In this document: piece by piece, positions 3,380 to 42,972 of the stretch
How positions within the stretch are numbered: position 1 is the first letter of the stretch
Layout: every line of letters starts with the position of its first letter
Assembly: GCA_964518565.1 (NCBI GenBank)
Contig: CAZFGX010000001.1
Location: 588,470-652,469 of the forward strand
Length of the DNA: 64,000 nucleotides
Reading direction: 5' to 3'
Source of the DNA: an uncultured Gammaproteobacteria bacterium
GTDB taxonomy: Bacteria; Patescibacteriota; Microgenomatia; CAZETR01; Amesbacteraceae
The notes under the pieces: generated by a model
Database searches by the model: none
What the model was told of the DNA's origin: nothing
Seen by the model: only the letters and a program-made list of their open reading frames with translations
Translations under genes and position numbers: made by a program

Positions 3380-4942
3380 GTGAGTAAGCAAAAAATTAAA
3401 AAAACTCAACTTCTAAATAGCAAAATTGTTCTTGCAGCATCTTTGGCCATAATTTCAGCGTTTGTTCTGATTATATTTGGCTCCCAAAACCAACACGGGA
3501 TTGCCACCACAGCCGCAACTCAAAACGATAAACCGATTTACACAAACGCTCTAGAGTCTGGCTGGGAAAACTGGTCTTGGGATGGTACGGTAGACCTAAA
3601 ATCGCTCAACCAATATGGCAATTATTCTATCTCTTTCCGACCAAAAAAAGCCTACGCAGGACTCTATTTACATACCAATACCAGTATTGATTCTAGCGCT
3701 TATTACAAAATAAATTTTCAAATCAAATCCGGCAGCCAAAACCAGCGCCTACGAGTGTTTGCCTATGGACCTGAAAACAAACCGCTTACTTCAGGTGAGT
3801 ATCTCAGTGGTTATCTTCCCACTGATAAATACAAAAACTACAGCGTAGATCTCAAAGCATTAAACCCAAAAAAACAACCAATTAAAGGTTTTTCTTTCCA
3901 GCTTGTTGGGGACAATCTCGGCAGCATCTTTTACGTAGACAATATTTATCTAAATAGCGCCACCCCCACTACCCCTAGCCCGACATCAATTGAATTTCCA
4001 CCAATCATTCCTCCAACAGTCATTCCCACTACAAAACCTACAACATTTACAACCACGCAAAGAGTGCTAGTGTATGACTTTAACCCTATCATTTCAAATG
4101 GCCAACGTATTCGCGAATTAGTCGGATGGACCGATCCCAAAGTCCTTGAAACCCAATACGTAAACACTATGAGAGACGTAAGCTGGGGCAATCTAAACTA
4201 TCAAATAGTGCAGAGATTTGAAAATATCGACGATATTCTCACTCGTTCAGACGGCTACAACTATTCCCCAACCGATTTTTACAATGTCGCTCGCGGTTTC
4301 CAAACGCCACACAGCCCAGTCTGGGCAGACTACAACGCATTTATCAAAAAATACTCGATGTGCGAAACAGCCAATGCCCAAAATATCGATGAAATCTGGC
4401 TCTGGGGAGCGCCTTGGCAAGGATTTTATGAAGCAAATATGACAGGGCCTGGCGCATTCACTACCAACGGACCAGTTATTTTAGGCACAACTTGTAACCA
4501 CAAAGTCTCCATAATGGGTTTTAGCTACGAAAGAGGTCTCAGTGAAATGCTAGAAGATCAAGGCCATCGCTTTGAAGGCACAATGAACCAAGTATTTAAA
4601 GAAGAACCACGTCCTTACGGTACACCGCAAAACACCGCTTGGGGTAAATTTGTAGCCGCTTGTGGCTGGATGCATCGACCACCAAATACTCTCGATCCTC
4701 AAAAAAGTGAATACAACTATGTAGATTCCTCAAATATCCTGACTACATGTCCGCAATACCAAACTTATCCAAATATGTCTACAAATCGGGTCGAAATAAA
4801 TTGTCGAACATGGAGTTGTGATGGTCTAGAGTTTAAAAAATGGTGGTTCAAACTTATCCCACATGCAGACGGTCGGGACACAACAGGCAAACTCAACAAT
4901 TGGTGGCCATACATCACCAATTTTGACAAAGCTATACAATAA
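3380..4942 (+). CDS. secreted/membrane-anchored hypothetical protein with Pro/Thr linker
   Basis: 520 aa; N-terminal TM helix; PTTPSPTSIEFPPIIPPTVIPTTKPTT linker; GTG start. Confidence 0.5.
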   Translation: MSKQKIKKTQLLNSKIVLAASLAIISAFVLIIFGSQNQHGIATTAATQNDKPIYTNALESGWENWSWDGTVDLKSLNQYGNYSISFRPKKAYAGLYLHTNTSIDSSAYYKINFQIKSGSQNQRLRVFAYGPENKPLTSGEYLSGYLPTDKYKNYSVDLKALNPKKQPIKGFSFQLVGDNLGSIFYVDNIYLNSATPTTPSPTSIEFPPIIPPTVIPTTKPTTFTTTQRVLVYDFNPIISNGQRIRELVGWTDPKVLETQYVNTMRDVSWGNLNYQIVQRFENIDDILTRSDGYNYSPTDFYNVARGFQTPHSPVWADYNAFIKKYSMCETANAQNIDEIWLWGAPWQGFYEANMTGPGAFTTNGPVILGTTCNHKVSIMGFSYERGLSEMLEDQGHRFEGTMNQVFKEEPRPYGTPQNTAWGKFVAACGWMHRPPNTLDPQKSEYNYVDSSNILTTCPQYQTYPNMSTNRVEINCRTWSCDGLEFKKWWFKLIPHADGRDTTGKLNNWWPYITNFDKAIQ

Positions 4943-12087: not shown

Positions 12088-13755
12088 CTAATACGATTCA
12101 GACAGAGTAACAAACATTGAATAATTATTTTTATTGTTCACTAATTCAACTGAATTCAAATTAGCAGGAAAGGTACCAAATTCCATTCCTTTTGCAGTGT
12201 AGATCCCCACGCCAGTTGCGGAGTATTTCATATCGTTTACTGCCGGACTTTGCCCATTAGTGTTATACAACAACCAATACTGAGTTTTTTCAGATAAATT
12301 GGTGTGAATTGGCAATGTGTTCCACGAATGAGGTGTCAATACTCCCACCTGAGTCGTTGCCAACAAGTTGCCCGGCCGATTTGCAGCAGTATTTGAATAA
12401 ATAGCTAATTGAAAATTTTTATTCATGTCTGATGTATCTACTTCATCCACATATACACTAATAGATTTTGTAGTGCCGGCAGAGGTATTCATAAACCTGG
12501 AACCATTGATATATCCTGAATTTGAAGTATCAGTCAATTCGCCTACCGACGAATTTCCAATTGTATTAGCAGTTGTTTCTACTGGTAATGTAGAAAAACC
12601 CAACACTCCATTGGGCTTTGTCGAACTTTCACTAGACAAGTACATCGAAAAATTATTCCCAGTCAGCACCCCAGTACCAAAACTTGCAGGCCATCCTGAA
12701 CCAAAGGCTTGCGGCAATACACTATACACACCAATGCCATTTTTACCTGGCAAATACTTCAATGCATTGTCAGATGCAGTCTTGCCATTTGAATTGTAGA
12801 CCAACCAATAATATGTATTTGGCGACAATACAGCCGACATGGTTACTTTTTGCCACTCGGCTGCAGTATCCAATGTTTGGGTAGGACTACTAGCAATCAA
12901 CGATCCCGGCTTGCCATTTTGATCCGCAAAAATTGCCATGCCAAAGGTATTATTTGGCGCCGAGACAATGTTGGTAACTGCGACATATGCACCCAAGACC
13001 TGCATTGGCTCAGACCCAGTCTTTACGCGTAATCCATTCATATAATTTGCATTCAAGCTATCTATCATTGGCCCAATAACAAAATTTCCCACCCCATCAT
13101 CAGATACTTGTGCAGGTAACTCAGGTGAAGTAGTGGGCACAACAACGACAGTCGGAGTAACCACTACACGAGCCATACTCCGAGGTTGGTTCAATAAAAA
13201 AGAGATCGGTTCAACTTCAACTTTTAGTTTTTGTGAAACAGTATTTGTCACCTCTGAACCAGCCAAATCAATCGTCAACATAGTATTTGCGTTTACATCC
13301 ACAGTATTTGATGTGATCTGAAACGAAGCCAACTCAAATGTACCCATTGGCGCATTTGCCTTATCCTGTGCGGATACTCCCAAAACAACAGTCGCCTTAC
13401 CAGAAGAATTTGCTTCTGCCATAGTAGTTTTTTGGATGACAGTTTTTAATGCCGTTGCAGTATTGATCTCAGAAACCAAATGAATTTTTGTCTGGTCAAA
13501 TTGAATAGTAGCCCGCACCAAACCGACATTTTGACTACCAGAATCCAACACCAATCGCACATTTTGATTTGGCGGTAATCGCTGACTATCCGAAGTAAAA
13601 CGAAAATGTACTACCTGGTTTGCTGCTTGGATAGTGCCGCCTTGTTGCTGTCTTGCCAAATATACACTACCCGGAATAGCAACCACCAATCCCAACAAAA
13701 CCAACAATGGTGCCAATGAAAACCCACCTCGAAACGTATTCATGAATTTGCTCAA
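12088..13755 (-). CDS. secreted hypothetical protein with internally duplicated C-terminal domain
   Basis: 555 aa; N-terminal TM; two similar ~70-aa segments (YYWLVYNSNGKTASDNALKY / YWLLYNTNGQSPAVNDMKY). Confidence 0.5.
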   Translation of the reverse strand: MSKFMNTFRGGFSLAPLLVLLGLVVAIPGSVYLARQQQGGTIQAANQVVHFRFTSDSQRLPPNQNVRLVLDSGSQNVGLVRATIQFDQTKIHLVSEINTATALKTVIQKTTMAEANSSGKATVVLGVSAQDKANAPMGTFELASFQITSNTVDVNANTMLTIDLAGSEVTNTVSQKLKVEVEPISFLLNQPRSMARVVVTPTVVVVPTTSPELPAQVSDDGVGNFVIGPMIDSLNANYMNGLRVKTGSEPMQVLGAYVAVTNIVSAPNNTFGMAIFADQNGKPGSLIASSPTQTLDTAAEWQKVTMSAVLSPNTYYWLVYNSNGKTASDNALKYLPGKNGIGVYSVLPQAFGSGWPASFGTGVLTGNNFSMYLSSESSTKPNGVLGFSTLPVETTANTIGNSSVGELTDTSNSGYINGSRFMNTSAGTTKSISVYVDEVDTSDMNKNFQLAIYSNTAANRPGNLLATTQVGVLTPHSWNTLPIHTNLSEKTQYWLLYNTNGQSPAVNDMKYSATGVGIYTAKGMEFGTFPANLNSVELVNNKNNYSMFVTLSESY

Positions 13756-14972: not shown

Positions 14973-15011
14973 GCAAAAAAAATGCAGGAGGGATGAAGTC
15001 ACCCCTCCTGC
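14973..15011 (-). terminator. intrinsic terminator closing the 15.0-19.8 kb operon
   Basis: GCAGGAGGG...CCCTCCTGC 9-bp stem followed on the minus strand by a U8 run. Confidence 0.6.
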
Positions 15012-15017
15012 GCTATC

Positions 15018-15296
15018 TCAAGCAACCTTCTTTATTTTTTTGATTGCTCGAGCCTTAAGTGAAGAAACGAATGGCTCATAATAAGCCATGAAACGTGGAG
15101 AATTCGTCAACTCTTTCCAACCAACAGAAAGCATTACGCTCAATGTCGCCAGTAAAAAGTAACTTATTCCCACCCGATTTTCGCCAACTCGAAATGCAAA
15201 AATACTCATGGCCATCAGACCAAGAAATACCCCAGCTTTGAGCAAGCGTTTAAAAACATCCCATGCGATTGGGCGAAGTGATGGTTTAGGCTTCAT
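15018..15296 (-). CDS. small membrane protein (operon gene 9)
   Basis: 93 aa starting MKPKPSL; 2 TM; the tracked 187-aa ORF's upstream part overlaps the next gene in another frame; 4-nt ATGA overlap. Confidence 0.4.
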   Translation of the reverse strand: MKPKPSLRPIAWDVFKRLLKAGVFLGLMAMSIFAFRVGENRVGISYFLLATLSVMLSVGWKELTNSPRFMAYYEPFVSSLKARAIKKIKKVA

Positions 15297-15712
15297 GACA
15301 TCACCTTCCAGAGTCCGAGTATCAAACCCAAGGGACCAATCACATATGCCAATGTGGCCGTATTTAGTCCTGGACCTCGCACAGACAAGACCTGTGCACT
15401 CACAGGTCGCACACGCATAAATGCCGGCACCAATGCACCAGTCAATACCAGATACACCACCGCCAACACAATCAGCACACAACCCAATCGATCTCCCAGA
15501 ACCAATCCGATCACCACCATCCCCAACGCCATCAAAACTTGGAAGTATGGGTGGAGATTTCCCAAAATCGCAATCGGCCAACTTCCTGTCGGCCGAACCA
15601 CGATCGGGTCACGCGTCAACACCATCCCCAAAACAACCGCCGCCATCAAAATCCAGCGCAAAGCACCACCTGACATTCGCAGAGAGGGTCGAACCGGAAC
15701 TGGACTAGCCAT
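15293..15712 (-). CDS. polytopic membrane protein (operon gene 8)
   Basis: 139 aa, 4 predicted TM helices. Confidence 0.45.
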   Translation of the reverse strand: MASPVPVRPSLRMSGGALRWILMAAVVLGMVLTRDPIVVRPTGSWPIAILGNLHPYFQVLMALGMVVIGLVLGDRLGCVLIVLAVVYLVLTGALVPAFMRVRPVSAQVLSVRGPGLNTATLAYVIGPLGLILGLWKVMS

Positions 15713-16271
15713 TTGGTTTCCTCCCTTCGCCCATTAGCCCACCACTCCGAGCGGGTAATTGTTTGACGTCTGGTTTTCGTATTTGATACTGCGGCGGCAG
15801 AGTTTGTCCCGGCGGTAATGCCGGAGGAGTATTAGAATTCGTCGAATTTGCATGAACGGCGTCTCGAGCCAATAACAAGGCTTCTTGCAAGGCCTTTGTC
15901 TGATTCGCCTGTGCAAACGCCTGTGCTTCTTGGGCTCGATATTTGCTCTGATTGTTCTTGTACCACAAAAAGCCTCCACCGCCACCGATCACAGCTACAG
16001 CCCCCACTACCAGCAAAATCCGCTGATTAGTCTCTTCAGGTGTCAATGGCCGATTCATCTCAGCCGTTTTCGCCGCCTGCATCTGACTTTGATCAGCTCG
16101 CCGATTTGCATCTGCGATTTGCTGATTTGCATTTGCCATAATCCCATTCACAACTTCTACAGGCACTTGGGGCACTGGCGTCGGCTGAGCTTCTCTGGAC
16201 CCGATAGATGCGCTCGCATCACATCCGGCCAACAAAACCAAGAAGCTGATTAGTACGATAAGTCGTCCCAT
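15705..16271 (-). CDS. lipoprotein with TM segment and Gln/Ala-rich region (operon gene 7)
   Basis: 188 aa; LLAGC lipobox; internal GGGGG-TM. Confidence 0.45.
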   Translation of the reverse strand: MGRLIVLISFLVLLAGCDASASIGSREAQPTPVPQVPVEVVNGIMANANQQIADANRRADQSQMQAAKTAEMNRPLTPEETNQRILLVVGAVAVIGGGGGFLWYKNNQSKYRAQEAQAFAQANQTKALQEALLLARDAVHANSTNSNTPPALPPGQTLPPQYQIRKPDVKQLPARSGGLMGEGRKPNG

Positions 16272-16272
16272 A

Positions 16273-17055
16273 TCACCACCATCCTGGTCCGATCACTCGC
16301 ATAAGACCTGCCAACAGGATGAGTCCCGCGACATACATCTCACGCATGAATGCCGGCCCGGCTTCATCAAAAGAAGGCACAAAAAACAAGCTGATCTGTA
16401 TTAGCAATCCAACAATAATTACTCCCAATGGTAAAACCACAATCTCACCACTAGAGAAAAATTCTGGTGCATACAGAATCGCACCGCCAAGTGCCATAAG
16501 CACTATTGCCAACCAATTATTGTGCCCATAGTAAATGTAATTTTTTCTATCGATTGGGTATCCATACTTTACCCATGCCCCCCAGCCCAAACCCCAAACA
16601 GCAAAAGCAAATCCACACAGGACATATTTTGCGAATACAGAATTCAGCAAAGGAGGCACTCCAAACACCCATTTACCGATAAAAAAACTTACGGCAACCC
16701 ACAACCAGCCAAACCACGATTTACGAAACAACACTTCAAACAATCGACCAAATTGGGCCATCAAGCTTTTATCAAGCACTGGTGGCACATCTGAAACTGT
16801 TTGCTGTGGCATTTGAGAAATAAACGCGGCCTCTGGTGCATGTGCAGATCGAGGCGGTGGTGTTTGTTTTGGTTGTTGTGGTGGCATTATCAACGGAATT
16901 GAACGCGTTTTTTGTCCCGTTGAATTGTTTGTTGGTCTAGTCCCTTCGCCCATTAGACGCATTTCGAACACCTCCGTTTGCCATGCCTCCGAGTGGAGGC
17001 AATCCGGGCTGGCCAAACCCTGGAACAGAAATAACATTTGGTTTTGCTGCTTCAA
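16273..17055 (-). CDS. polytopic membrane protein (operon gene 6)
   Basis: 260 aa ORF; real start probably an internal Met (about 16953-16962) because the upstream part overlaps the SPFH gene. Confidence 0.4.
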   Translation of the reverse strand: MKQQNQMLFLFQGLASPDCLHSEAWQTEVFEMRLMGEGTRPTNNSTGQKTRSIPLIMPPQQPKQTPPPRSAHAPEAAFISQMPQQTVSDVPPVLDKSLMAQFGRLFEVLFRKSWFGWLWVAVSFFIGKWVFGVPPLLNSVFAKYVLCGFAFAVWGLGWGAWVKYGYPIDRKNYIYYGHNNWLAIVLMALGGAILYAPEFFSSGEIVVLPLGVIIVGLLIQISLFFVPSFDEAGPAFMREMYVAGLILLAGLMRVIGPGWW

Positions 17056-17758
17056 TAGCAGATGCCAACATTCTGCCGACTTCTATCTGTGCATAACCAT
17101 TTCTACCCAAAATCTGAACCATCTTTGCGATCGCCAATGCATTAGATTCGATTCGTGATCGCTCCACATCAGCTTCAAGACGCTCTTGTTCAGCCTTCGC
17201 AGATGCACCAACAAAATCAAACTGTCCCAAAAACAGCTCGTTCAACCGACACCCCCATTCTTGGACTGTTGGGTTCAATGCATTGATAATTGACTGTTTT
17301 AAACCCAACGTAGTCAATTGTTTTAAATCATGCAAATTTAAACTCTGAACTGTTTCAGCAGTCATAAGTGGGATGATTTGGCGCAACGCAATGTTTGGCT
17401 TACGCCCCGGAGCAAATCTCAGTTTATCAGGATCAACGATCTCCAAGATAAACGACAAACTTTGCCCTGGAGTAGTATTACTAAATTCGATATCCCACGA
17501 ATCCAGAGTAGTCGCTCGAATATTTGGGAAACCAACGATCTGAGGACCTTTTAGCTCTTCACCAATCACCATTGGCCATGCAGTCATTACCACTGGTGTA
17601 TTCACGCCACTCCAGACAATATCATCGATTAGTTTGATAAAAACAGTTCTATCGCCTCTAATCCATCTAATTCTGCCAGAATACCGCAACAACACCACAA
17701 CTATAGCAATTACCAAACATACCAATGAGCCATAATCTTGTAAAACCTGCCAGCTCAT
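16937..17758 (-). CDS. SPFH/band-7 (stomatin/HflC-like) domain protein (operon gene 5)
   Basis: 273 aa; N-terminal TM, SPFH-like core (…ILEIVDPDKLRFA…) and a C-terminal AEQERLEADVERSRIESNALAIAKM coiled-coil typical of stomatin/HflC. Confidence 0.6.
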   Translation of the reverse strand: MSWQVLQDYGSLVCLVIAIVVVLLRYSGRIRWIRGDRTVFIKLIDDIVWSGVNTPVVMTAWPMVIGEELKGPQIVGFPNIRATTLDSWDIEFSNTTPGQSLSFILEIVDPDKLRFAPGRKPNIALRQIIPLMTAETVQSLNLHDLKQLTTLGLKQSIINALNPTVQEWGCRLNELFLGQFDFVGASAKAEQERLEADVERSRIESNALAIAKMVQILGRNGYAQIEVGRMLASAIEAAKPNVISVPGFGQPGLPPLGGMANGGVRNASNGRRD

Positions 17759-18531
17759 CTACCACCTCCCTTTCGCTTGTTATGAAATTCTTCAAAAGGG
17801 TCAGAAATGACAACAGGCACTTCAGGAGAGGCTGCGTCTACCACTTTGGCAGGAGTAGCAGCTGCAGCTGGCTTTACAAAAGCTGCCATATTTAGCCCCG
17901 TCTGATGTAAAAGCTGCATCGCTTGCTCACTCGTTATTACACCCCTATCCAAAAGAGTGAGGATGGTATCTCGATCGACCTGTATTAGCTTTGCCGAATC
18001 GCCAACTTGTTGCATCAGTTCTCGGACTTTTTGTACCGCACCAGCCTGACCCAAAAGTGATAGATCTACCTGTTCACCACCTGGACCCTTGACCATTGCT
18101 TGTACCACAGAACTAGTCCCTGGTGGCGCACCAGCCGCCTGCAAAGCTTTGTTCACTGCTGCTTGTGTTACGGCTTGAGACATCGGCCGGCCACCAGTTT
18201 GACTTTTGGCTCGACTAACAACACCCAAGATACCCAATATCACAACCAAAACAGGTCCGATTCCTCGACCGATCAATGTCGGGCCAATCAATTGATCACC
18301 CAACACTCCGGTACTACCTCCCAAAAGCAACCAAAAAATCAAATTGAAAATGCCCCCGCCGTTACGAAAACTATTCACCAGCGAAAGAAACATTCCCAAC
18401 GTTCCGACACCTGAAAGTGTCGCAATTTTTGGTAATTCGATAGGCAAAAGCGGTTGAATCATCTCCCAGCCAAACCAACCACCCGCTACCAAAGCGAGGG
18501 TGATAATAGCCGGTAACAAAATCCCGATCAT
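17755..18531 (-). CDS. membrane protein with SHOCT-like C-terminal motif (operon gene 4)
   Basis: 258 aa; 4-5 TM; C-terminal LTLLDRGVITSEQAMQLL resembles the SHOCT consensus; ATGA overlap with SPFH gene. Confidence 0.45.
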   Translation of the reverse strand: MIGILLPAIITLALVAGGWFGWEMIQPLLPIELPKIATLSGVGTLGMFLSLVNSFRNGGGIFNLIFWLLLGGSTGVLGDQLIGPTLIGRGIGPVLVVILGILGVVSRAKSQTGGRPMSQAVTQAAVNKALQAAGAPPGTSSVVQAMVKGPGGEQVDLSLLGQAGAVQKVRELMQQVGDSAKLIQVDRDTILTLLDRGVITSEQAMQLLHQTGLNMAAFVKPAAAATPAKVVDAASPEVPVVISDPFEEFHNKRKGGGR

Positions 18532-18543
18532 AATTTCCCTCCT

Positions 18544-18864
18544 TTAGGGATTTCCACCTCCGGATGGAGGCGAAATCTGATCAATTGGCACTACAGCCTG
18601 AAGTTGTTGGACAGGCGTTATCATTTGTGGTGGGTCAATTTGGACATAGTTTTCCACTGAACCTACTGCTTTTGCATGACCTTTAAAATGACCGATCGCC
18701 AATGCACCAACAATAGTCTGGTTACTCGGATCAAATCCAACGTTTGCCACCACACCTGTGCCGTCATTTACTTCGACACTGGCCTTATTCGTATGGCCAA
18801 CTCGGCCCCCACCTTCCGCACCAACAATTCGTAAAAATGCATCAAGAATTTGAGACAAGTTCAT
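18544..18864 (-). CDS. hypothetical Gly/Val-rich protein (operon gene 3)
   Basis: 106 aa, no signal peptide. Confidence 0.4.
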   Translation of the reverse strand: MNLSQILDAFLRIVGAEGGGRVGHTNKASVEVNDGTGVVANVGFDPSNQTIVGALAIGHFKGHAKAVGSVENYVQIDPPQMITPVQQLQAVVPIDQISPPSGGGNP

Positions 18865-19106
18865 ACAACCTCCACAGGAAAAAATTCAGTCGATTTACAC
18901 TCAACACCTTTTAAGGTGATTCGAGACAGTTGAATCTGAATTTTGCCATCAGGCAATGTCAATGCATTGACTTGAATTCCACACTTGAGTTGAATCACTT
19001 CACTCATCGTCGTCCCATCAGAAGTTGTCGACGAAACAGTCGACGACCCACCAAAGTTGAAGTTGATAAACTTCAACAGGGTCAAAAACGAAATAAGCGT
19101 CTTCAT
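18861..19106 (-). CDS. small secreted protein (operon gene 2)
   Basis: 81 aa with signal peptide; ATGA overlaps on both sides. Confidence 0.4.
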   Translation of the reverse strand: MKTLISFLTLLKFINFNFGGSSTVSSTTSDGTTMSEVIQLKCGIQVNALTLPDGKIQIQLSRITLKGVECKSTEFFPVEVV

Positions 19107-19801
19107 GGTGAAAATTGTGAAATCGGATGGTCTTTTGCCAAAACATGAGCCGTACGCATAACAGCCCTCAGATCTTCTACTCCCAAACGACCAAGGGTCT
19201 CCAAGGTGAATCGTACAGCATTCTCAGATATCGACAATTTTTCATTCGCCAATGCCTTTTCATTCGCCAATGCCCTCTGAAAATACAATACATCCTCATT
19301 AGCTCTAGCCAAGTCTTCAAGCCACAACACTCTCTGAAAATACAATACCACCTCAGCCGAATGCTGAGCCAATTCAGTCAACAGATGTCCAAAGAGTTTT
19401 GATTGATTCATCAAATCAAAATTTGGCCCATCAACCCTCTCTCGACGATCGAGCGGTAATGATCGAAAATGTGTGTACCAGTTTCGGACGTCAGCAGTCG
19501 AAATACTCCAAATGACTTCCATCGCAGTGCGATGTTTCTCAGGCTCTGGCGCCACGACGGGCGCCACCTTTGCCTGTGCTGGGATATTGCGCTGCACCAT
19601 CCCAATAGTTTGCACTACCGGTTTTGGTGCGTCGTTTCCTGAAGACCACACGATCCAACCCCCAGCTGCTGCTAACGGAAATCCAAAAAGTACCAGTACC
19701 GTCGGCATCAATCCTTCTTCAGAACTACCATCGCCAAAAATAAAAGCCAAAACAAGCAACAACAATCCAAGGCCAGCTGCCACATAACCGAATCTTTTCA
19801 T
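19103..19801 (-). CDS. membrane protein with internal repeat (operon gene 1)
   Basis: start taken at MKRFGY, preceded by a GGAGG SD; 2 TM; repeated VLYFQRVLWLEDLARANEDVLYFQRALANEKALANEK. Confidence 0.45.
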   Translation of the reverse strand: MKRFGYVAAGLGLLLLVLAFIFGDGSSEEGLMPTVLVLFGFPLAAAGGWIVWSSGNDAPKPVVQTIGMVQRNIPAQAKVAPVVAPEPEKHRTAMEVIWSISTADVRNWYTHFRSLPLDRRERVDGPNFDLMNQSKLFGHLLTELAQHSAEVVLYFQRVLWLEDLARANEDVLYFQRALANEKALANEKLSISENAVRFTLETLGRLGVEDLRAVMRTAHVLAKDHPISQFSP

Positions 19802-19978
19802 ATCAACCTCCAATAAAAACACTATAGGATATTTTATCTTCTTCACCTAAGTTTTTAAGGTGCCATTTCTTCAATACCCAAAAAACTCGGCGCAAAACCG
19901 ACTCCTAGGTGATAGAAATGTAGGCGAATTTTACCTCTATGCTATGGGATATGCAAACTCATCTGCTAAAATGCTTCC

Positions 19979-20611
19979 ATGTTCCGCGAAAGCCGTCCTT
20001 CAAATCCAGAACAACCCAGCTCCAAAGCCTACAAAGATCTCTCGTCTACCTTCATCGGCAGCTTTCCCCTGTCTCCTCAGCAAATCTCTGGCCACTACCT
20101 AGTGTTTGACCTAGCCGCCCACTACTATCGCCATCATCAGCCAGAAATTATTGCAGCTGCTGCCAAAAATCCCCCAGCACCACACTTAGACATTCCCAAA
20201 TGGCACATTCCTCTGCCCAGTCCCCAAGGAACAGCTGAATCTATCTGGGGCACTTTCATGTCTAAGCTGGCCAACCCTACTCCAGACGCACCCGAACCAC
20301 CTCTCGAATCTCTATTTGCCTTTCTGGCTCGCACCGACCAAACTTTTTACGATGCGCACATCAAACGCCACGCTCCCCAACATCACATGAGCCATTTACG
20401 CCGATATTTTGTTCACGGCGAACTTCCTGCCCAAAACAAATTTTATGATTGGCTAAAAACCTACGGCAGCGAGTACTTATCCCAACACAAATCCAAACTT
20501 CTCTCATTGGCAGTGCATCCCGATACTGCAGCTCCTCGCTGGCAACAGGATATTAGTACCTATATCAAATTCTGGGACCAACACTTCATAGACGAATTCT
20601 TTACACGTTAG
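19979..20611 (+). CDS. hypothetical protein
   Basis: 210 aa, His/Pro-rich, GC-elevated. Confidence 0.35.
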   Translation: MFRESRPSNPEQPSSKAYKDLSSTFIGSFPLSPQQISGHYLVFDLAAHYYRHHQPEIIAAAAKNPPAPHLDIPKWHIPLPSPQGTAESIWGTFMSKLANPTPDAPEPPLESLFAFLARTDQTFYDAHIKRHAPQHHMSHLRRYFVHGELPAQNKFYDWLKTYGSEYLSQHKSKLLSLAVHPDTAAPRWQQDISTYIKFWDQHFIDEFFTR

Positions 20612-22375: not shown

Positions 22376-23989
22376 TCAAGGCAGGCTTATTCGATTCTTT
22401 CGTATCTCAAACTGTTCCATAGTTTTCAACAAATGAATATAATTTCTGATTTTAGATGGTTCAGGATTAGCAAAATAGTCAGGCTCAACTGCAGGCACAT
22501 CAGCCATCACTTCACTAAAATAATGTTTACCAAATTCGCGTACTAGAGTAGACAGTTGCTTTATATCTGCCTCTGGGTGTTTCTGCAATTCCGATTGAGC
22601 TGTTGTTCCAATCATGTCCAAGATCAGCGGATTCCTTTTCAAAAAATCATCCATTCTTTTGCCAAATGGTTCACTGGTGTTCTCTCCAGCAATCAATCGT
22701 TCGCAAACCATGTGAGTAATTCTGTCAACAGAAGATAAAAATGCTCTACGTCGAATATTTACTCTACGAAAATATCGCTTTCGAATCACTGCCAACTCTT
22801 CTGTGTCCTGTTCCGAAAGACCAACAGAATTTTTTTTATACTGCTCCAACCAATTAGTTAAAATGGGCATATTTGAGTCATCCAACTTTTCCCTGATTTT
22901 ATCCAAAGAAACAGTATCAGAAAAATTTGGCACATTCATACGAAACTGTCCATCTGTAGAACCTATCCGACCTCGATCAGACAAAACCATCTCTGTTGAT
23001 TCCAAATACTCGATAGCCAGCGGAGAACGAACAAATTTATTCAAGAAAGCAAAATCTTCAGAGAATGTGTTATAAGGATATCCATTCACTGCTCGAAAAT
23101 TTTGCACCCTCACAGCCACTCGACTCCCTCCCGAAAAACGTGTTCCCGTATATTCAATGTTACCTCGACTAAAAACAAGCCCGTCATGAATATAAGACAT
23201 GAATGAAGACATACGTTTTTCTACTGACTCACCAGGAATCAAATCGGGATATTCAGCAGTAACCACTTGAATTGGTTTGATAAATACACCAGAAGAACCG
23301 TCGTACTGTTCCAACAAACCAGCAACATATTTTGATTTCAAAAATACATCTCCATCAATAAAATCTATTATGCCCTGTCCACGTTTTATCTTTCGAAAAC
23401 GTTCATATGCCACATGTCCACCAACATTTCTGGCATACCCAATAGGGTTAAATGTCGCCTCTTGCTCAGACTGGCTAAATGCCTTATCTTCACTTGAGCA
23501 ATCAATTGCCTGAATATTTACCTGTCTAGTACGTGCTAAAAAGAAAACCTCTTGTTCTTCCTTCGTAAGTTTTAAAGCTTGTAACTCAATGGCCAACTGT
23601 TCATCAGACAAATCAGAACCGTATAAACTCAGAATTTGTATATGGCGCTGATTTTCCTCAAATCTATTTCGCAACAATTCAGCACTTGATCCCTCATATC
23701 TTGTTTGCGTATCCCCTGTTCCTTCGCTGGACTTAGCAGCACGTAAAGAATTGTTTACAACAACCAAAAATTCATAACTCTTCGTATCCACACCGTGTTG
23801 TGTTGCTGCACTACGTAATAAACGCCAAAAATTTCCACTATGCAATTCAGCCAAAGAAGGGATGACCACTGACAACTTTAATTCAGGATGAGGAGGCCGC
23901 AAATTCTGAGCATATTTATCAAGTATTTCTTGATGCTCAATTTCAAAATTTGTTATTTTTTCTGATTCAATAGGACTACCTTTTTCCAT
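22376..23989 (-). CDS. large hypothetical protein, possibly GT-A glycosyltransferase-like
   Basis: 537 aa; KLSVVIPS...EFLVVVNNS resembles GT2 beta1/beta2; weak. Confidence 0.45.
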   Translation of the reverse strand: MEKGSPIESEKITNFEIEHQEILDKYAQNLRPPHPELKLSVVIPSLAELHSGNFWRLLRSAATQHGVDTKSYEFLVVVNNSLRAAKSSEGTGDTQTRYEGSSAELLRNRFEENQRHIQILSLYGSDLSDEQLAIELQALKLTKEEQEVFFLARTRQVNIQAIDCSSEDKAFSQSEQEATFNPIGYARNVGGHVAYERFRKIKRGQGIIDFIDGDVFLKSKYVAGLLEQYDGSSGVFIKPIQVVTAEYPDLIPGESVEKRMSSFMSYIHDGLVFSRGNIEYTGTRFSGGSRVAVRVQNFRAVNGYPYNTFSEDFAFLNKFVRSPLAIEYLESTEMVLSDRGRIGSTDGQFRMNVPNFSDTVSLDKIREKLDDSNMPILTNWLEQYKKNSVGLSEQDTEELAVIRKRYFRRVNIRRRAFLSSVDRITHMVCERLIAGENTSEPFGKRMDDFLKRNPLILDMIGTTAQSELQKHPEADIKQLSTLVREFGKHYFSEVMADVPAVEPDYFANPEPSKIRNYIHLLKTMEQFEIRKNRISLP

Positions 23990-32141: not shown

Positions 32142-34091
32142 ATGCCGTTTGTCACCAAATGTTTACGCTTTTGTTTTGCTCTGATTTTTGGCCTGACTCC
32201 GCTACTATTTCTCCCCTTCACTTCCGAACTTTTCGAATTCAACAAATTATTTCTCATCTATCTTCTCACTATTATTATTCTTGGCTGTTGGGCAATACAA
32301 ATGTTTAGCGAAAAACGTGTCATCTTCAAGCGCACACCATTAGACCTACCCCTTCTTCTGTTTCTAGGCATCTCTATAGTTTCAAGTCTCTTATCTATCG
32401 ATACCCACACCTCACTGATCGGCTATTACGGCCGCTGGAACGGTGGTCTCTATTCACTTCTAAGTTATGCAGTGCTGTATTGGGCGTATGTCTCAAATAT
32501 CGACAAAGAGGTCAGCCAAAAACTGATCAAATATACACTTCTGCCTTCTGTAGTCATCGTTGCTATATATGCTTCACTCGAACATTTTGGCTTTTCTTTT
32601 TCTTGTTTAGCTATTACCGGAAAATTCGGGGTGGACTGCTGGGTCCAAGATGTCCAAAACCGCGTCTTTGCCACCATTGGTCAACCAAATTGGCTGGCAG
32701 CGTATTTAGTGGGTCTGATATTTATTCCACTCGCCTATGTACTCGAATCAAAAAAAGCTCCCTATCTGCAAATAGCTATCAGCTACCTCTTATATATCTG
32801 TCTCATTTTCACCAAATCTCGCTCCGGCATCTTGGCCTTTGGCATCTCCAGTCTCATATTTTGGTTTCTGCCATTTTTTACTGCCAAAACCAAAAAATAT
32901 TTACCTCTCAGTATTTTTTTTGGTGTAGCTATATTTTTTGGCTTACTCATCAAAAATCCAATTCAAGAATATCTATTCAAATCTTCTACACCAAACACCT
33001 CTGTTGGTCCTGCTCTTGAAGTCGGTGGCACCGAGTCCGGCGCCATTCGCAAAATCGTCTGGGAAGGCGCGATCAATATCTGGCGCGAATCCACCAAAAC
33101 ACTACTTATTGGCACCGGCCCCGAAACTTTCGCCATGGCTTATTACAATCATCGCCCACTGGCTCACAACAACACCTCCGAATGGGAGCTTCTCTACAAT
33201 AAAGCTCACAACGAATTTCTCAACCAACTCGCCACCACCGGTCTTCTGGGCTTGGCTTCCTACATTTTCTTGCTCATTATGATGGCCAAACTATTTTTTG
33301 GCCACAAGACATCTTCCCCTCTCCAACTAGCGCTTTTTTGCGGCTGGATATCGATATCCGTCACCAATTTTTTAGGCTTCTCCGTCGTCGTCACTCAAAT
33401 TTTGCTCTTTTTACTCCCCGCCATATCTCTTTCACTCCAAACTTCCAAACTGTCGAATAAAGTTTATGTTCAACCGTTATTTTCTATTGGTGTATTTCTC
33501 ATCGCTGGCATAGCCATCTATTTTGTCGGCAAAATTTGGATTTCTGATATTCATTACGCTTCATCCCAAAAATATCTATCTTATTTCAGTCGCGCCGACA
33601 ATCCAGACCCACAAGATCTACTCACAGCCTACAACGAAGCCAGTATTGCCTATGACCTCAATCCTAACGAACCATTTATCGACACTCAGCTCGCCGACAC
33701 TGCCGCATACCTGGCTCTCTACACCGGCGAAAAAGATGCCACCACCTCCAGCCAACTGACTACGCTAGCCACCATGGCCAGCCAAAAAGCACTAGCCACG
33801 TCTCCACTTCACCCCCTACATTACAAATCCGCCGCCAGAGTCTATATTTTGCTTTCCGCCTTTAAGCCAGAATATCTGACCACTGCGGACAAAATCCTCC
33901 AGTATGCCCAAGATCTGTCCCCTACAGATCCACGAATTCCCTATAATCGGGCTATTATTGCCAAATACCAGCAAGACAAACCCAAGGCCAAACAACTGTT
34001 TTTGGATAGTCTAAAGCTCAAGTCCGACTTCGGTGATGCCATAGCTCAGGTCAGTCAATTAGCCTCAGACTCAGCCAAACCCAAAAAATGA
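32142..34091 (+). CDS. O-antigen ligase/polymerase-family membrane protein with C-terminal TPR-like repeats
   Basis: 649 aa; about 12 TM; HNEFLNQLATTGLLG Wzy_C-like motif; C-terminal helical repeats. Confidence 0.68.
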   Translation: MPFVTKCLRFCFALIFGLTPLLFLPFTSELFEFNKLFLIYLLTIIILGCWAIQMFSEKRVIFKRTPLDLPLLLFLGISIVSSLLSIDTHTSLIGYYGRWNGGLYSLLSYAVLYWAYVSNIDKEVSQKLIKYTLLPSVVIVAIYASLEHFGFSFSCLAITGKFGVDCWVQDVQNRVFATIGQPNWLAAYLVGLIFIPLAYVLESKKAPYLQIAISYLLYICLIFTKSRSGILAFGISSLIFWFLPFFTAKTKKYLPLSIFFGVAIFFGLLIKNPIQEYLFKSSTPNTSVGPALEVGGTESGAIRKIVWEGAINIWRESTKTLLIGTGPETFAMAYYNHRPLAHNNTSEWELLYNKAHNEFLNQLATTGLLGLASYIFLLIMMAKLFFGHKTSSPLQLALFCGWISISVTNFLGFSVVVTQILLFLLPAISLSLQTSKLSNKVYVQPLFSIGVFLIAGIAIYFVGKIWISDIHYASSQKYLSYFSRADNPDPQDLLTAYNEASIAYDLNPNEPFIDTQLADTAAYLALYTGEKDATTSSQLTTLATMASQKALATSPLHPLHYKSAARVYILLSAFKPEYLTTADKILQYAQDLSPTDPRIPYNRAIIAKYQQDKPKAKQLFLDSLKLKSDFGDAIAQVSQLASDSAKPKK

Positions 34092-37694: not shown

Positions 37695-38489
37695 ATGAAG
37701 TTGCAAATAGTTTTCTTTGGCTCGTTTCAACACTATTCAGTCTTAGTCTTAGAACAGCTAGAAAAACACTTTGAGGTAATTGGTGTAGTCACTACTCCTC
37801 CTCGCCCTGCCGGCCGTCACCTCAAACTCACATCTACTCCAGTAGCAGATTTCGCAAACCTCCACAAACTCCCACTATTCGAACCGCCATCATTAAAAAA
37901 CATCGATCCGACTACACTTATACCTACTCGACCAGACCTTATTGTCGTCGCTGGCTACGGCAAACTTATCCCCAAAAATTGGCTAGACTTTCCTACCAAA
38001 ATGGCCATCAACATGCACCCATCCCCACTACCCAGATATGCCGGCCCCATGCCTGGCGAATGGCAAATTCTCAATGGTGAAACCCAATCCGCAATTTCAC
38101 TTATTCAAATGTCCGAACAATTTGATTCCGGCGGTATTCTCGTCCAAATCCCGTTTAATATTTCACCTACTGAAACACGCGAAACATTTTACGATCGAGC
38201 CTTTCACCTAGCCGCAGACATTCTCGTAGCTGAACTACCAAAAATAGCCTCAGGTCAGATCACTCCTCACAGCCAAAATCCAAATCCCACAGCAGCCTCT
38301 ACCTACGCCAAAAAACTCACCCGGGAAGATGGATTTGTCTCTTGGGAGGATCTAAAAAAACCAGAAATTTTAGATAAAAAACGGCGCGCCTTCTTTGGCT
38401 GGCCAGGACTGTGGTCTATCAATCCTTCTGGCAAAAGAGTTAAAATCGTCTCATTAGAACCCATAAAATTAATTGAAGAAGGCAAATAA
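37695..38489 (+). CDS. fmt: methionyl-tRNA formyltransferase
   Basis: start at MKLQIVFFGS; formyltransferase N-domain with HPSPLPRYAG and a C-terminal domain. Confidence 0.85.
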   Translation: MKLQIVFFGSFQHYSVLVLEQLEKHFEVIGVVTTPPRPAGRHLKLTSTPVADFANLHKLPLFEPPSLKNIDPTTLIPTRPDLIVVAGYGKLIPKNWLDFPTKMAINMHPSPLPRYAGPMPGEWQILNGETQSAISLIQMSEQFDSGGILVQIPFNISPTETRETFYDRAFHLAADILVAELPKIASGQITPHSQNPNPTAASTYAKKLTREDGFVSWEDLKKPEILDKKRRAFFGWPGLWSINPSGKRVKIVSLEPIKLIEEGK

Positions 38490-39550
38490 TGTCCGAGATT
38501 AACACTTCACCTGAAGTAATAAAAAATCCCTATACAGGTATCAGATTTGAACCAGCCCAACATCGCTTAATCGGCAAAGATAACTTCAGCGAACCATATT
38601 TCAATCAGGAAGTTGCCAAAAGACTGGCACTCTATCAACCGCAAGTTTTAACTATCGAAGGCTTACCTAATACTTTAGGCCTCGGAATGGATGAAGAAAA
38701 AGATATTCCATTTCTCACGCGGGTCATACCAGGACCAATCGAAACGGTCTACGGCAAACATACAGATGTATACGTCATAGCTTCTGACAACTTTGAAACT
38801 GCTGCTGCGGCATTCACTACCAGTTTAAATGATGACGCATACAGTAAAGACGCAGGAGAAAGACTAAAAAAAGAAATGTACGCCACCCTACCCGAATTTG
38901 CCACCAAACCAGCAATTTACGCGAGTGTGCTTTTAGTTGGACTAGCTATCGATAAATTCTCTACCAAAACAGAAGAAAAAATGTCTAGAAGAAATTTTCT
39001 AAAAATAGCTGGCAAAACTGTCGCAGCTGCCGGATCAGCGGCATTTCTCGCCCAATTAAGCACCCCCTTTGCTGCCACAATGACCACAACGGAAGAAAGT
39101 AGAGATCATGTGCTCAGTGCGTTAGACACCATAGATCAACTTATCCAACCCACCAAACAAAAAATAATCAATGGCAGGACTGCAGAGCAAATAGCCCAAA
39201 CCCAAGACACTATCGACCATCTCGGTTTGCCCAAAAATACCGACGCAGCCGTCATGATGGGTTTTATGCACAGCTTTAATGCCCGCCAATTACTCAACGA
39301 CCCCCAAGAACGAGATTCTGCCATTCGCGAACTGTTTAAAATCCACAAACAATCTACAATTGAAACCTGCAAACAGCTCAAACTCTCTGCTGAAGAAACC
39401 GGACTTGCCGTAAATGTTTATCTTCCCGAATTATTCAAACGTATCAATCTATTAAAAGTTTCCACCCAAAAACCCCACAAACTTACAAACATGGTTACAT
39501 TCTATAGCCCTCAAATATCTTCAGCGATTCAAACAGTTCAAGAAGTATAA
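38489..39550 (+). CDS. hypothetical protein with internal twin-arginine (SRRNFLK) motif
   Basis: 353 aa; MSRRNFLKIAGKTVAAAGSAAFLAQL at residues ~165-190. Confidence 0.5.
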   Translation: MSEINTSPEVIKNPYTGIRFEPAQHRLIGKDNFSEPYFNQEVAKRLALYQPQVLTIEGLPNTLGLGMDEEKDIPFLTRVIPGPIETVYGKHTDVYVIASDNFETAAAAFTTSLNDDAYSKDAGERLKKEMYATLPEFATKPAIYASVLLVGLAIDKFSTKTEEKMSRRNFLKIAGKTVAAAGSAAFLAQLSTPFAATMTTTEESRDHVLSALDTIDQLIQPTKQKIINGRTAEQIAQTQDTIDHLGLPKNTDAAVMMGFMHSFNARQLLNDPQERDSAIRELFKIHKQSTIETCKQLKLSAEETGLAVNVYLPELFKRINLLKVSTQKPHKLTNMVTFYSPQISSAIQTVQEV

Positions 39551-40926: not shown

Positions 40927-42972
40927 CTAGTAGCTCAAAACAATTCTCGGCCGATTTGTCACCACCGCTTCTGAAGAAGAAATGTTCATACCATCAGCCC
41001 GAGGCGAATCTATAGCCAAAGTAAATACAGTACCAATATTCGACTTCACAAATGAAGTAATATCCAATTGTATCCATTGATTCGCCACTCCTCCACCAGA
41101 ATTTGTCGCCAAAATCGTACCCAAATCTGGCCTATTGGCAAATGTCAGTGTTTCTTCAGTCCAAGATGTGTTCGCGACTTGACGAACACGCTGTGGACTA
41201 ACTGAAGGCGCATCTTTACTCGCTGTAATCTTAAAACGTAATTTTGCCGAAGAAATATTCTTACCCAAATAGCCTCGAGTATCAAACTTCATATATGTAA
41301 TTTTTGTCGGATCTCCATCTATAAATAATTCTGTAACGTTTGCATGGGTGATATTTGGATACACTGCGGTGACATAAGAATCTTCTACTGGCACAACCTC
41401 AGCGCCTTGAGTTGACGGAACTGGAGTAGTAATAACCGTAGGTACCACCGTCGATGTTGGCATCACAGAAGGTTGAATAGTAGCCGTAACAACCGGGAGT
41501 GTACAATTTGATCCATTATTTACTGGAACACAATTGAGATTGTTTGCAAATACGAGACTATCCAATTTCAGCCCATTTTCTTTTCCAACCACTCGAATAC
41601 TGTGAGTTCCAGCACTCAAGGTTTGCAAAATTCGCGAGCCTGTCTGGCCATTCATATAATCCACCCACACCCATGAATTTGTTGCCATAGTTGCAAGATC
41701 CCCCACCAAAATCGGACAACCCGAATCTATTTGTAAATAATAGGCATTGGATGTAGAAGATCCTGCCATCATTCGGCTCCAAACCACATACTGGCCAGTA
41801 GAAGCAATAGATACACTCCCTGTTGCGACTCCAAAGGTGGTGGGAATGGCAGCACAAGTAGATAGAGTTGGCGTAGGCGTATTCGGCTGAGGAGTATTGG
41901 TGGGTTGACCAGGAATAGGAGTAGCTGTAGGTATAGGTGTAGGAGTATTTGTAGGCCGAATAGTATTAGTTGGTACAATAGTTGGAGTATTGGTCGCTAC
42001 AGGTACAGGAGTAATGTTTGGATCATTCGTAATAGTAAACGAGTCAACAAGTCCTCCTCCGCCCACATTTATATAGCTATAAGCTATTTGTGAAGGTGAA
42101 ACAATAAATTTTCCCCATCCATAATTTGAACTCACATTTGTGGATTTTTCAAAATATGGATATTCAGAATCTGTAGTATTCAAACCACGAAACCCTTGTC
42201 CACCAGTACCCAGTACATCAATTACCAACCCTTGACCTTGTATAAAATTTCCTCCTGCGGCACTCACGCAACTAGCCACATATGTCCCTGCAGTCGCACA
42301 AGATAACTGCTTTGATCTTTCATACCCATGCTCATGACCTTGTAGCACTAGATCTACTTTTTTATTGAACAACAATGTCATAAATGGTGTCCCTACTTCA
42401 TTCCCCTTTTCCATTACCGAAATATAATTCTTATGCATTCCAACCACGACCCACTTAATACCACGAGCCCTCGCATCATCAATAGCATTTGAAGTAAATG
42501 TGTAACCAGTACCACCAACAGCATAGCTAATTGCACCAGATCCATACGATCCGCCTACTCCCGGTCTTACCATTACAAATCTAGCAATTGGGTTATTAAC
42601 CGGGTAATCAAAATAATAATTATGTCCATACGTACCAACAATATTCACACCAGCCCTCGGACAATTAGCTATATATGTCTCAATATTTCCCGAGCTACTT
42701 TCACCAGAATCATGATTTCCTGTCACTAGTAATAAATTTGTGAATGTCCCCCATTTGCTACACCAGTTTTGTTCAGCAGTGGTATAAGCCAAATCACCCA
42801 AGGCCAAAAATAAATTTGGATTTTGCTGTCTGATACTATTTGTCACATTTCCAAAATTTGATCCATTTGCAAAGTCCCCCGCAGCCCCAAAACTAAAACT
42901 AGTCGATTGAGCAAATACCTTGTCACCAAAAAACAAGCTCATAAAAAACAGAAGTGTAAAGTATTTTTTCAT
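40927..42972 (-). CDS. secreted calcineurin-like metallophosphoesterase with Thr/Pro linker and C-terminal domain
   Basis: 681 aa; signal peptide; GDLAYT, GNHD and GHEH phosphoesterase motifs; PTNTPTPIPTATPIPGQPTNTPQPNTPTPT linker. Confidence 0.7.
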   Translation of the reverse strand: MKKYFTLLFFMSLFFGDKVFAQSTSFSFGAAGDFANGSNFGNVTNSIRQQNPNLFLALGDLAYTTAEQNWCSKWGTFTNLLLVTGNHDSGESSSGNIETYIANCPRAGVNIVGTYGHNYYFDYPVNNPIARFVMVRPGVGGSYGSGAISYAVGGTGYTFTSNAIDDARARGIKWVVVGMHKNYISVMEKGNEVGTPFMTLLFNKKVDLVLQGHEHGYERSKQLSCATAGTYVASCVSAAGGNFIQGQGLVIDVLGTGGQGFRGLNTTDSEYPYFEKSTNVSSNYGWGKFIVSPSQIAYSYINVGGGGLVDSFTITNDPNITPVPVATNTPTIVPTNTIRPTNTPTPIPTATPIPGQPTNTPQPNTPTPTLSTCAAIPTTFGVATGSVSIASTGQYVVWSRMMAGSSTSNAYYLQIDSGCPILVGDLATMATNSWVWVDYMNGQTGSRILQTLSAGTHSIRVVGKENGLKLDSLVFANNLNCVPVNNGSNCTLPVVTATIQPSVMPTSTVVPTVITTPVPSTQGAEVVPVEDSYVTAVYPNITHANVTELFIDGDPTKITYMKFDTRGYLGKNISSAKLRFKITASKDAPSVSPQRVRQVANTSWTEETLTFANRPDLGTILATNSGGGVANQWIQLDITSFVKSNIGTVFTLAIDSPRADGMNISSSEAVVTNRPRIVLSY

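Follow-up and report, generated by a model that had tools for sequence, protein, structure and literature searches.

A tightly coupled operon of mostly membrane proteins around a very divergent SPFH-type protein in an uncultured Amesbacteraceae genome

SPFH proteins (e.g., HflK/C, stomatin, flotillin, prohibitin, and erlin) form rings or cages, and scaffolds of this kind are found throughout life; their bacterial clients are known in few cases, namely, FtsH for HflK/C, and NfeD and unfolded proteins for FloA. Stomatin/flotillin-NfeD operons include those of Pyrococcus horikoshii (PH1511/PH1510), Escherichia coli (qmcA-ybbJ and yqiK-yqiJ), Bacillus subtilis (floA-yqeZ and floT-yuaF), and Staphylococcus aureus (floA-nfeD). 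Here, we set beside these systems a nine-gene minus-strand operon (g1 to g9) carried by a stretch of 64,000 nucleotides (nt), hereafter the window, which covers positions 588,470 to 652,469 of contig CAZFGX010000001.1 (assembly GCA_964518565.1) from an uncultured bacterium of the GTDB lineage Patescibacteriota; Microgenomatia; Amesbacteraceae. On sequence evidence, the locus forms one transcription unit with tightly coupled genes, most of them for membrane proteins, centered on an SPFH-type protein, g5.

The operon resembles the stomatin/flotillin-NfeD operons in two respects: g5 would be an SPFH protein that is anchored in the membrane at its N terminus and oligomerizes via a helical region at its C terminus, with the SPFH domain predicted to face the cytoplasm, and translational coupling links its gene to that (g4) of a transmembrane (TM)-bundle protein with a soluble C-terminal domain. 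Unlike those operons, the window operon is without an NfeD or OB-fold signature, its partner g4 having a SHOCT-like helical motif; it has at least three more co-conserved membrane proteins (g6, g7, and g8); and the SPFH domain of g5 has diverged so far that it misses the Pfam cutoff. The HflK/HflC-FtsH cage, in which an SPFH scaffold encloses membrane-protein clients, offers a conceptual model for g5 and its partners, but the window operon has one SPFH gene, no paralogous pair, and no FtsH, and the SPFH domain of g5 is predicted by charge to be cytoplasmic and not extracytoplasmic. Fusions of Band_7_1 (PF13421) to SHOCT (the B. subtilis YdjI type) also join an SPFH-superfamily domain to a SHOCT-type helical hairpin; in the window, by contrast, the SHOCT-like element is subthreshold and lies on the separate, polytopic g4, the Pfam match is to Band_7 (PF01145) and not Band_7_1, and no PspA- or YdjG/H-like partners were detected. 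Finally, SPFH loci of bacteria are known to be divergent, patchy, and context specific (PMC13086221). Those of Pseudomonas aeruginosa, PaFlo3-9, are strain variable, narrowly distributed, divergent, and patchy, with a nonconserved context and no clear orthologues (PMC13086221), and the window locus likewise is a divergent SPFH gene with a patchy distribution. The PaFlo proteins are, however, recognized by standard models, and several are paired with NfeD, whereas the window operon, with a conserved set of partners all its own, is much rarer.

Nine coupled genes and a divergent SPFH-type protein

All nine open reading frames (ORFs) that the initial annotation had placed on the minus strand from about 19801 to 15018 were located there (Table 1; positions are those of the window, and ORF starts were refined by the position of the Shine-Dalgarno sequence). 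Six of the eight junctions between them overlap, one fewer than the seven first counted: four are ATGA overlaps (g1/g2, g2/g3, g4/g5, and g8/g9), g7 and g8 share 8 nt, and g5 and g6 share 26 nt (17 nt counted from a second ATG). The other two are spacers of 1 nt (g6/g7) and of 12 nt with AGGAGG (g3/g4). Elsewhere in the window, overlaps occur at 7 of 36 same-strand junctions (Fisher p=0.005 for the comparison with the operon), and the ATGA type occurs at 1 of 36, versus 4 of 8 in the operon. Because junction overlaps are enriched relative to the rest of the window, we regard the tight coupling as a genuine local feature. Shine-Dalgarno sequences are present at eight of the nine starts (i.e., GGAGG-like sites 4 to 8 nt 5' of g1, g3, g4, g5, g6, and g8 and weaker ones at g7 and g9). 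The block closes, as first described, in a strong intrinsic terminator, the stem of which is unchanged in a 92% identical relative (L066), where both substitutions fall in the loop. The candidate sigma-70-like promoter upstream of g1 is weak, in that shuffled sequence gives an equal number of such sites.

Are all nine ORFs genes? When the window's 48 other ORFs are used to train a codon model, the annotated frame is best for eight of the nine, with g9 tied (-0.002), and the margins of seven lie within the range of the training genes. The least certain gene of the operon is g2, which may be only 48 amino acids (aa) long, starting at 19007: its coding margin is 0.011 for the long form (81 aa) versus 0.084 for the short form (48 aa), the long form has no Shine-Dalgarno sequence upstream of its start, and the gene caller of another assembly picked the 48-aa form. 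Conservation speaks to the downstream genes. The synteny search proposed at the outset found the g4-to-g8 order retained in L003, a 3.3-kb contig from another run with homologues of these five genes at 28 to 40% identity. Relative to L066, g8 has 36 synonymous and 13 nonsynonymous codon changes and g9 has 14 and 6, respectively; a variant of g9 with at least 90% identity was found in a second assembly. Because of the L003 synteny (g4 to g8) and the synonymous excess relative to L066 (g8 and g9), we judge at least g4 through g9 to be real genes under selection. For g1 and g3 (the latter with a codon-model margin of 0.161), gene status is backed by coding statistics and operon position alone, and we treat the two as predicted genes.

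The identity of g5 emerges by way of a homologue. An exhaustive phmmer search of 1.84 billion representative proteins with g5 retrieved g5 itself and P0002 (30% identity, E=4e-18) and no canonical SPFH protein. P0002 scores 31.0 bits (E=3.1e-7) against Pfam Band_7 (PF01145), in excess of the gathering cutoff of 23.6 bits, over positions 26 to 170 of the 176-position hidden Markov model (HMM), and g5's own subthreshold match spans the equivalent region. Because the homologous P0002 passes the Band_7 gathering score, we place the g5 family, by transitive homology, as a very divergent SPFH lineage. The SPFH/band-7 scaffold named in the initial annotation thus holds only by way of P0002; g5 itself stays under the Band_7 cutoff. 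The parts of g5 (Table 1) follow the order expected of an SPFH protein. The N-terminal anchor of g5 consists of hydrophobic residues 5 to 23 (Kyte-Doolittle hydropathy of 2.33) followed by RYSGRIRWIRGDR, with five Arg residues, and is kept in P0002. Sequence searches of the PDB with the g5 protein and with profiles of g5, g4, and g6 returned nothing.

Table 1. Coordinates and predicted parts of the operon, with signals, repeats, and related loci
Feature	Position in window	Strand	Length	Details
g1	19801-19103	minus	232 aa	GGAGG 5 nt 5' of ATG at 19801; N-terminal 2-TM hairpin, then ~180-aa predicted cytoplasmic domain with internal repeats
g2	19106-18861	minus	81 or 48 aa	81 aa from ATGA overlap, or 48 aa from ATG at 19007
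g3	18864-18544	minus	106 aa	GGAGG 4 nt 5' of start
g4	18531-17755	minus	258 aa	Three clear and a likely fourth TM segment; ~150-aa Ala/Gln-rich C-terminal domain with SHOCT-like hairpin at residues 190-208
g5	17758-16937	minus	273 aa	N-terminal TM anchor, divergent SPFH/Band_7 domain, long helical region, conserved AAKPNV(I/V)S segment
g6	16962-16273	minus	229 aa	GGAGG 8 nt 5' of ATG at 16962; basic Pro/Gln-rich N-terminal tail of ~80 aa, then ~5 TM segments
g7	16271-15705	minus	188 aa	Lipobox signal peptide, ~65-aa extracellular segment with conserved VPVEVVN, one TM segment, cytoplasmic tail ending LMGEGRKPNG (predicted)
g8	15712-15293	minus	139 aa	~4 TM segments
g9	15296-15018	minus	92 aa	Very basic, 2-TM hairpin
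Direct repeat, copy 1	15713-15737		25 nt	g7/g8 junction; LMGEGRKP in g7 frame
Direct repeat, copy 2	16932-16956		25 nt	g5/g6 junction; LMGEGTRP in g6 frame
Intrinsic terminator	15011-14974	minus		12-bp stem (8 GC pairs), 4-nt loop, T8; 6 nt past g9 stop
Candidate sigma-70-like promoter	19831-19858	minus		TTAAAA-16-TAAAAT, from consensus scan; 177-nt divergent intergenic region upstream of g1
Recombination breakpoint versus L065	16380-16400			Sharp identity jump; left side in operon orientation diverged
L066				Metagenome assembly GCA_020050275.1; end of g7, g8, g9, glyA; 92% nt identity to window
L069				SRR8893623; g7-g8; 92% nt identity to window
L067				SRR8893623; ORF210-tmk; 96% nt identity to window

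Putative partners of g5 and a shared terminal motif

The gene that adjoins g5 through an ATGA overlap, g4, encodes a TM protein, and the adjacency is retained in L003. It had been described as a polytopic protein with a SHOCT-like motif; the polytopic part stands, while the match to the SHOCT-like family PF22746 is subthreshold (14.7 bits, E=0.024; cutoff of 27). The Ala/Gln/Leu-rich, SHOCT-like C-terminal domain of g4 is probably helical. g4 and its L003 homologue are 30% identical, with IFWLLL and GDQLI conserved; within the SHOCT motif, the G-x-I-T core is kept in L003, and only G197, I199, and T200 are conserved. The study in which SHOCT was defined reports a Band_7-type domain as its commonest fusion partner (PMC3581485). 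A SHOCT-like domain adjoining an SPFH gene would fit a functional link but does not prove it.

Could g4, or g3, instead be a highly diverged NfeD, such that the locus is a canonical stomatin-NfeD pair with unrelated neighbors, a pair that the initial annotation had itself named as a possible refutation? The position of g4 directly upstream of the SPFH gene, the ATGA overlap, and the combination of a TM bundle with a soluble C-terminal domain, as in short NfeD proteins, would all be expected of such a pair, and hhalign matches the g4 family to 10 TM columns of E. coli YbbJ (IFWLLLGG versus IFWLSLGG). The probability of this alignment is, however, only 2.6%, and NfeD (PF01957) has no match at E<=1 in the nine products or in the five L003 homologues. 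Moreover, NfeD has a beta-barrel of the OB-fold type where g4 has a C-terminal domain that is probably helical, and four further genes (g4 and g6 to g8) are co-conserved with g5. The canonical pair is rejected on the negative results with the NfeD HMM and the YbbJ alignment, and we hold it to be very improbable.

The remaining products largely bear out their first description as including a 2-TM protein with internal repeats (g1), a Gly/Val-rich protein (g3, which is soluble), and a lipobox protein (g7), with the correction that the last protein has 92 aa and not 93. The repeats of g1 (19241 to 19355) comprise two DNA copies 57 nt apart encoding VLYFQR(V/A)L and an 18-nt tandem duplication encoding ALANEK-ALANEK. 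Like g4, both g6 and g8 are polytopic, and a PSFDE(A/S)GPAF(M/L)RE loop and a C-terminal GxGWW in g6 are highly conserved. The lipobox of g7 (pattern L-[AS]-[GA]-C) reads MGRLIVLISFLVLLAGC (LLAGC), would be subject to Lgt/Lsp processing, and is retained in all three lineages in which the family is found (LLAGC in the window and in L065, and LSAC, within LSLSAC, in L003). In Pfam, NCBIfam, PHROGs, and PADLOC, none of the nine proteins reaches threshold, and the anti-phage defense models of PADLOC-DB v2 give nothing below E=0.03 for them; when the homologues from L003 and L065 were put through the same family searches, the one significant match was that of P0002 to Band_7. The first impression that no enzyme domain is recognizable is confirmed in that none was found in the family searches of the nine proteins.

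With respect to topology, we predict that the C-terminal domain of g1, g3, the C-terminal domain of g4, the SPFH domain of g5, the N-terminal tail of g6, the C-terminal tail of g7, and the ends of g9 face the cytoplasm. Only the first ~65 aa of g7, lipid anchored, would lie outside.

A peptide motif recurs at the termini of consecutive products. The two copies of a 25-nt direct repeat (Table 1) are 88% identical, and the motif that they encode is common to the N terminus of g6 (MRLMGEGTRP) and the C terminus of g7 (GGLMGEGRKPNG); this g6/g7 peptide match exceeds all 100 shuffles (z of ~4). L003 has its own version at the same positions, i.e., LWNGARLPP at the N terminus of the g6 homologue and LWKGARLPP in the tail of the g7 homologue, with a third copy (LWNGGHLPP) in the tail of the g5 homologue; the DNA repeats of L003 lie at 1532 to 1566 and 1642 to 1676 of that contig. 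That is, the motif co-varies between lineages, being LMGEG.RP in the window and LW(N/K)G(A/G)(R/H)LPP in L003. It is plausible that L-[MW]-x-[EG]-[GA]-R-x-P is a putative shared docking peptide kept uniform by gene conversion.

Such a motif also bears on whether the nine products belong together at all, since the operon could simply cotranscribe small membrane proteins that are functionally independent and form no common complex. Compact genomes often pack unrelated genes together, overlaps do occur at 7 of 36 junctions elsewhere in this one, and the interaction of the products is something that we infer. Functional independence is harder to reconcile with the order g4-g5-g6-g7-g8 being kept in L003 at a mere 28 to 40% identity, with a terminal motif on three consecutive products that co-varies between lineages, and with the enrichment of ATGA coupling (4 of 8 versus 1 of 36). 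We consider it unlikely.

Distribution, composition, and an exchanged g5-g6 pair

The operon is extremely rare. When 5.8 billion clusters were searched through a k-mer filter, with g5 and with profiles of g6 and g4, only the source genome, P0015 (L003), and P0016 (L065) came up, the source genome being found both as its NCBI contig (1,001,365 bp) and in two Logan runs; the exhaustive phmmer search and the three k-mer-filtered searches together yielded only P0002, P0015, and P0016. With g5 or g6 profiles, scans of the GTDB species genomes and of JGI metagenomes (twice) turned up no locus. Among billions of proteins, the family occurs in just three lineages, all uncultured, and the initial suspicion that this is not a well-known operon is borne out. 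The nearest glyA locus in the GTDB representatives (L004; CAZXHY010000006.1, 1 to 15115; 60% aa identity) shares glyA-rpsB-tsf-frr-rseP synteny with the window and has no homologue of the operon; between its tmk-like gene and glyA lie a histidine phosphatase gene and a Maf-like gene. Because L004 is so distant (60% glyA identity), it says little on when the operon arrived.

Did the operon arrive recently and as a unit? The initial annotation had taken a GC content of about 50% to suggest acquisition as a unit, and this figure is overstated: the nine ORFs together have 46.7% GC versus 42.5% (standard deviation [SD], 3.2%) for the 48 other genes of the window. The scan that had been proposed as a check finds GC slightly raised and codon usage not deviant. 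Most of the shift lies at the first and second codon positions (GC1, 55.7%, and GC2, 43.0%, versus 50.2% and 39.6% in the other genes), because the membrane proteins are rich in Gly, Ala, Val, and Pro; at the third position (GC3), the operon has 41.3% versus a background of 37.8%, i.e., about 0.5 SD higher. Among the individual genes, only g7 (51% GC) and g8 (53% GC) stand out, and these belong to the conserved part of the locus, not to the swapped part described below. Other 1-kb bins of the window reach equal GC (20 to 21 kb, 27 to 30 kb, and 33 to 35 kb). The codon usage of the operon looks native.

These figures bear directly on a reading of the locus as a recently acquired mobile island or prophage remnant, e.g., a holin/spanin-type lysis cassette. 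In its favor are the GC content somewhat over the window mean, with g7 and g8 at 51 to 53%, the absence of the operon from its nearest syntenic relative (L004), and weak PHROGs matches of g7 to an Rz-like spanin and a holin-like family (E=0.09 to 0.2). The PHROGs matches are not significant, however, GC3 is only 0.5 SD up with native codon usage, and other window segments are equally GC rich. No integrase, flanking tRNA, or bounding repeats were found at the locus, g5 has no match in phages or plasmids, and IMG/VR, searched twice with g5 or g6 profiles, gave no match. Housekeeping genes flank the operon, namely, glyA, folD, a Clp-type ATPase gene, tmk, gmd, and topA. Given the small GC shift, native codon usage, and housekeeping flanks, recent acquisition as a unit has no support; by GC3, codon usage, and the empty phage, plasmid, and IMG/VR searches, recent horizontal acquisition and a lysis cassette are largely refuted, and we give them next to no credence.

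A different kind of exchange is suggested by a close relative whose flanks are 86 to 98% identical to the window at the DNA level. In L066, the per-gene nt identity is 96% for glyA, 93% for g9, 86% for g8, and 98% for the g7 tail. As a separate observation, g8 is more diverged from L066 than its neighbors are, yet its changes are mostly synonymous. L065 (JAHZTE010731416.1), from the same assembly as L066 (GCA_020050275.1), aligns to window positions 17345 to 15940 with ~45 to 65% DNA identity over the C-terminal half of g5 and most of g6 and with 90 to 100% identity from ~16390 through g7. At the protein level, the identity is 41% for the g5 C terminus, 58% for g6 overall (100% for its last 31 residues), and ~95% for g7. 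This pattern indicates that, in the close relative, g5 and most of g6 were exchanged for a distant allele or that the contig is chimeric. The mosaic is seen on a single 1.4-kb metagenome contig, possibly chimeric; a chimera would itself require near-identical DNA at the junction. A 13-nt repeat close to the breakpoint (16393 to 16405 and 17977 to 17989) was considered as a cassette boundary and judged to be due to chance, several such pairs being expected in 5 kb by our estimate. The joint replacement of the scaffold and one partner suggests that the g5-g6 pair co-evolves.

Might such replacement mean that the locus is a fast-evolving conflict system (e.g., membrane-acting phage exclusion, abortive infection, or a host or partner-cell interface), with g5-g6 as its swapped specificity module? 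A sharp breakpoint near 16390 separates the diverged g5 C terminus and g6 from flanks at 86 to 98% nt identity, g8 (86% nt) has diverged further than glyA (96%), the family is patchy and extremely narrow in its distribution, and the operon is absent from the closest glyA-syntenic genome (L004), all of which such a system could explain. On the other hand, there is no PADLOC or PHROGs match, and the proteins have no effector or sensor domain such as a nuclease, protease, or NTPase; the operon lies among housekeeping genes (glyA, folD, tmk, gmd, and topA) and not in a defense island; and the one 1.4-kb contig that carries the mosaic may be chimeric. A conflict-type role is hinted at only by the divergent allele that takes the place of g5-g6 in the close relative, and we see a small chance that this role is the correct one.

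A proposed membrane assembly and its setting

With slightly more belief than doubt, we propose that the operon encodes an SPFH-scaffolded multisubunit complex on the cytoplasmic face of the membrane, organized by g5. Based on what is known of SPFH proteins, the N-terminal helix would hold g5 in the membrane, and the long C-terminal helices, together with the AAKPNV(I/V)S segment, would allow it to oligomerize to a ring or cage. Based on gene order and translational coupling, g4, g6, g7, g8, and probably g1, g3, and g9 would be fixed, stoichiometric partners or clients of g5, with g4 taking the place held by the NfeD gene in classical operons. The motif, which recurs at the tails of g5 and g7 and at the head of g6, could serve as a shared docking peptide. 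The mosaic in L065, unless chimeric, shows the g5-g6 pair being exchanged as a module between close relatives. As in other SPFH systems of bacteria, the physiological role would most likely be to compartmentalize or stabilize a membrane protein assembly.

Several points weigh against this proposal. g5 itself scores 14.9 bits against Band_7 (E=0.029), under the 23.6-bit cutoff, and hhalign finds no match between the g5 family and E. coli QmcA. The AlphaFold2 (AF2) models are unusable by their predicted local distance difference test (pLDDT) scores and gave no structural confirmation of the SPFH fold of g5: the g5 model (from a two-sequence multiple sequence alignment [MSA]) has a mean pLDDT of 45.8, with residues 1 to 121 below 50 (even this model, in favor of the proposal, has long helices at 181 to 219 and 224 to 237, with pLDDT of 50 to 80), the g6 model (three-sequence MSA) has a pLDDT of 43.1, and Foldseek with the low-confidence g5 model against the PDB gave nothing at E<=0.001, only noise. 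None of the partners of g5 has a significant family match, and the L003 homologue of g4 has no SHOCT match at E<=1. The L003 contig begins inside g4, so its synteny covers g4 to g8. The topology was derived by applying hydropathy and the positive-inside rule by hand, and the physical association of the products would follow from gene order alone.

A bolder version of the proposed complex can also be framed. The locus could be a new kind of SPFH membrane machine in which g5 and g6, as a scaffold and channel-like pair, form a swappable specificity cassette under diversifying selection (e.g., for membrane-level phage exclusion or partner-cell interaction in a bacterium with a small genome), with the motif-bearing termini tying three subunits to one hub. 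We offer this as conjecture, to which we attach little weight.

The surroundings of the operon include other ORFs of interest. Divergent from the operon, at 19979 to 20611 on the plus strand, is a 210-aa His/Pro-rich orphan ORF that has a 4-nt convergent overlap with the 3' end of tmk. It has no Pfam match, is scored as coding by the codon model, and is 96% conserved at the nt level in SRR8893623 (L067). Such an ORF might encode a regulator or simply be an unrelated orphan. On the minus strand between folD and glyA, a 555-aa ORF (12088 to 13755) that has no match in Pfam, and whose N terminus carries a signal-like hydrophobic segment, probably encodes a large secreted or surface orphan protein. 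Farther away, envelope- or surface-related genes lie at 32142 to 34091, 40927 to 42972, 44795 to 46390, 48727 to 49956, and 60978 to 62315; the kinds of products among these are a Wzy_C O-antigen-ligase-like protein, a metallophosphoesterase with CBM96, a beta-helix protein, a T2SSE/PilB-type ATPase, and a PMT_2 glycosyltransferase. Large ORFs with no Pfam match occur at 3380 to 4942, 22376 to 23989, 38489 to 39550, 54212 to 55411, and 57279 to 58502. Because GC skew is negative almost throughout (in 62 of 63 full 1-kb bins, with the cumulative skew declining almost monotonically to -14), the window is without a replication origin or terminus.

What does an SPFH cage enclose? In the operon described here, an SPFH protein that is minimal and very divergent would be hard-wired to membrane partners that form a defined, co-conserved set, without NfeD. 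If these partners do assemble with g5, the operon would be a compact system in which to ask that question, and the co-evolution of g5 and g6 would be a testable prediction about the contacts between an SPFH scaffold and its client.

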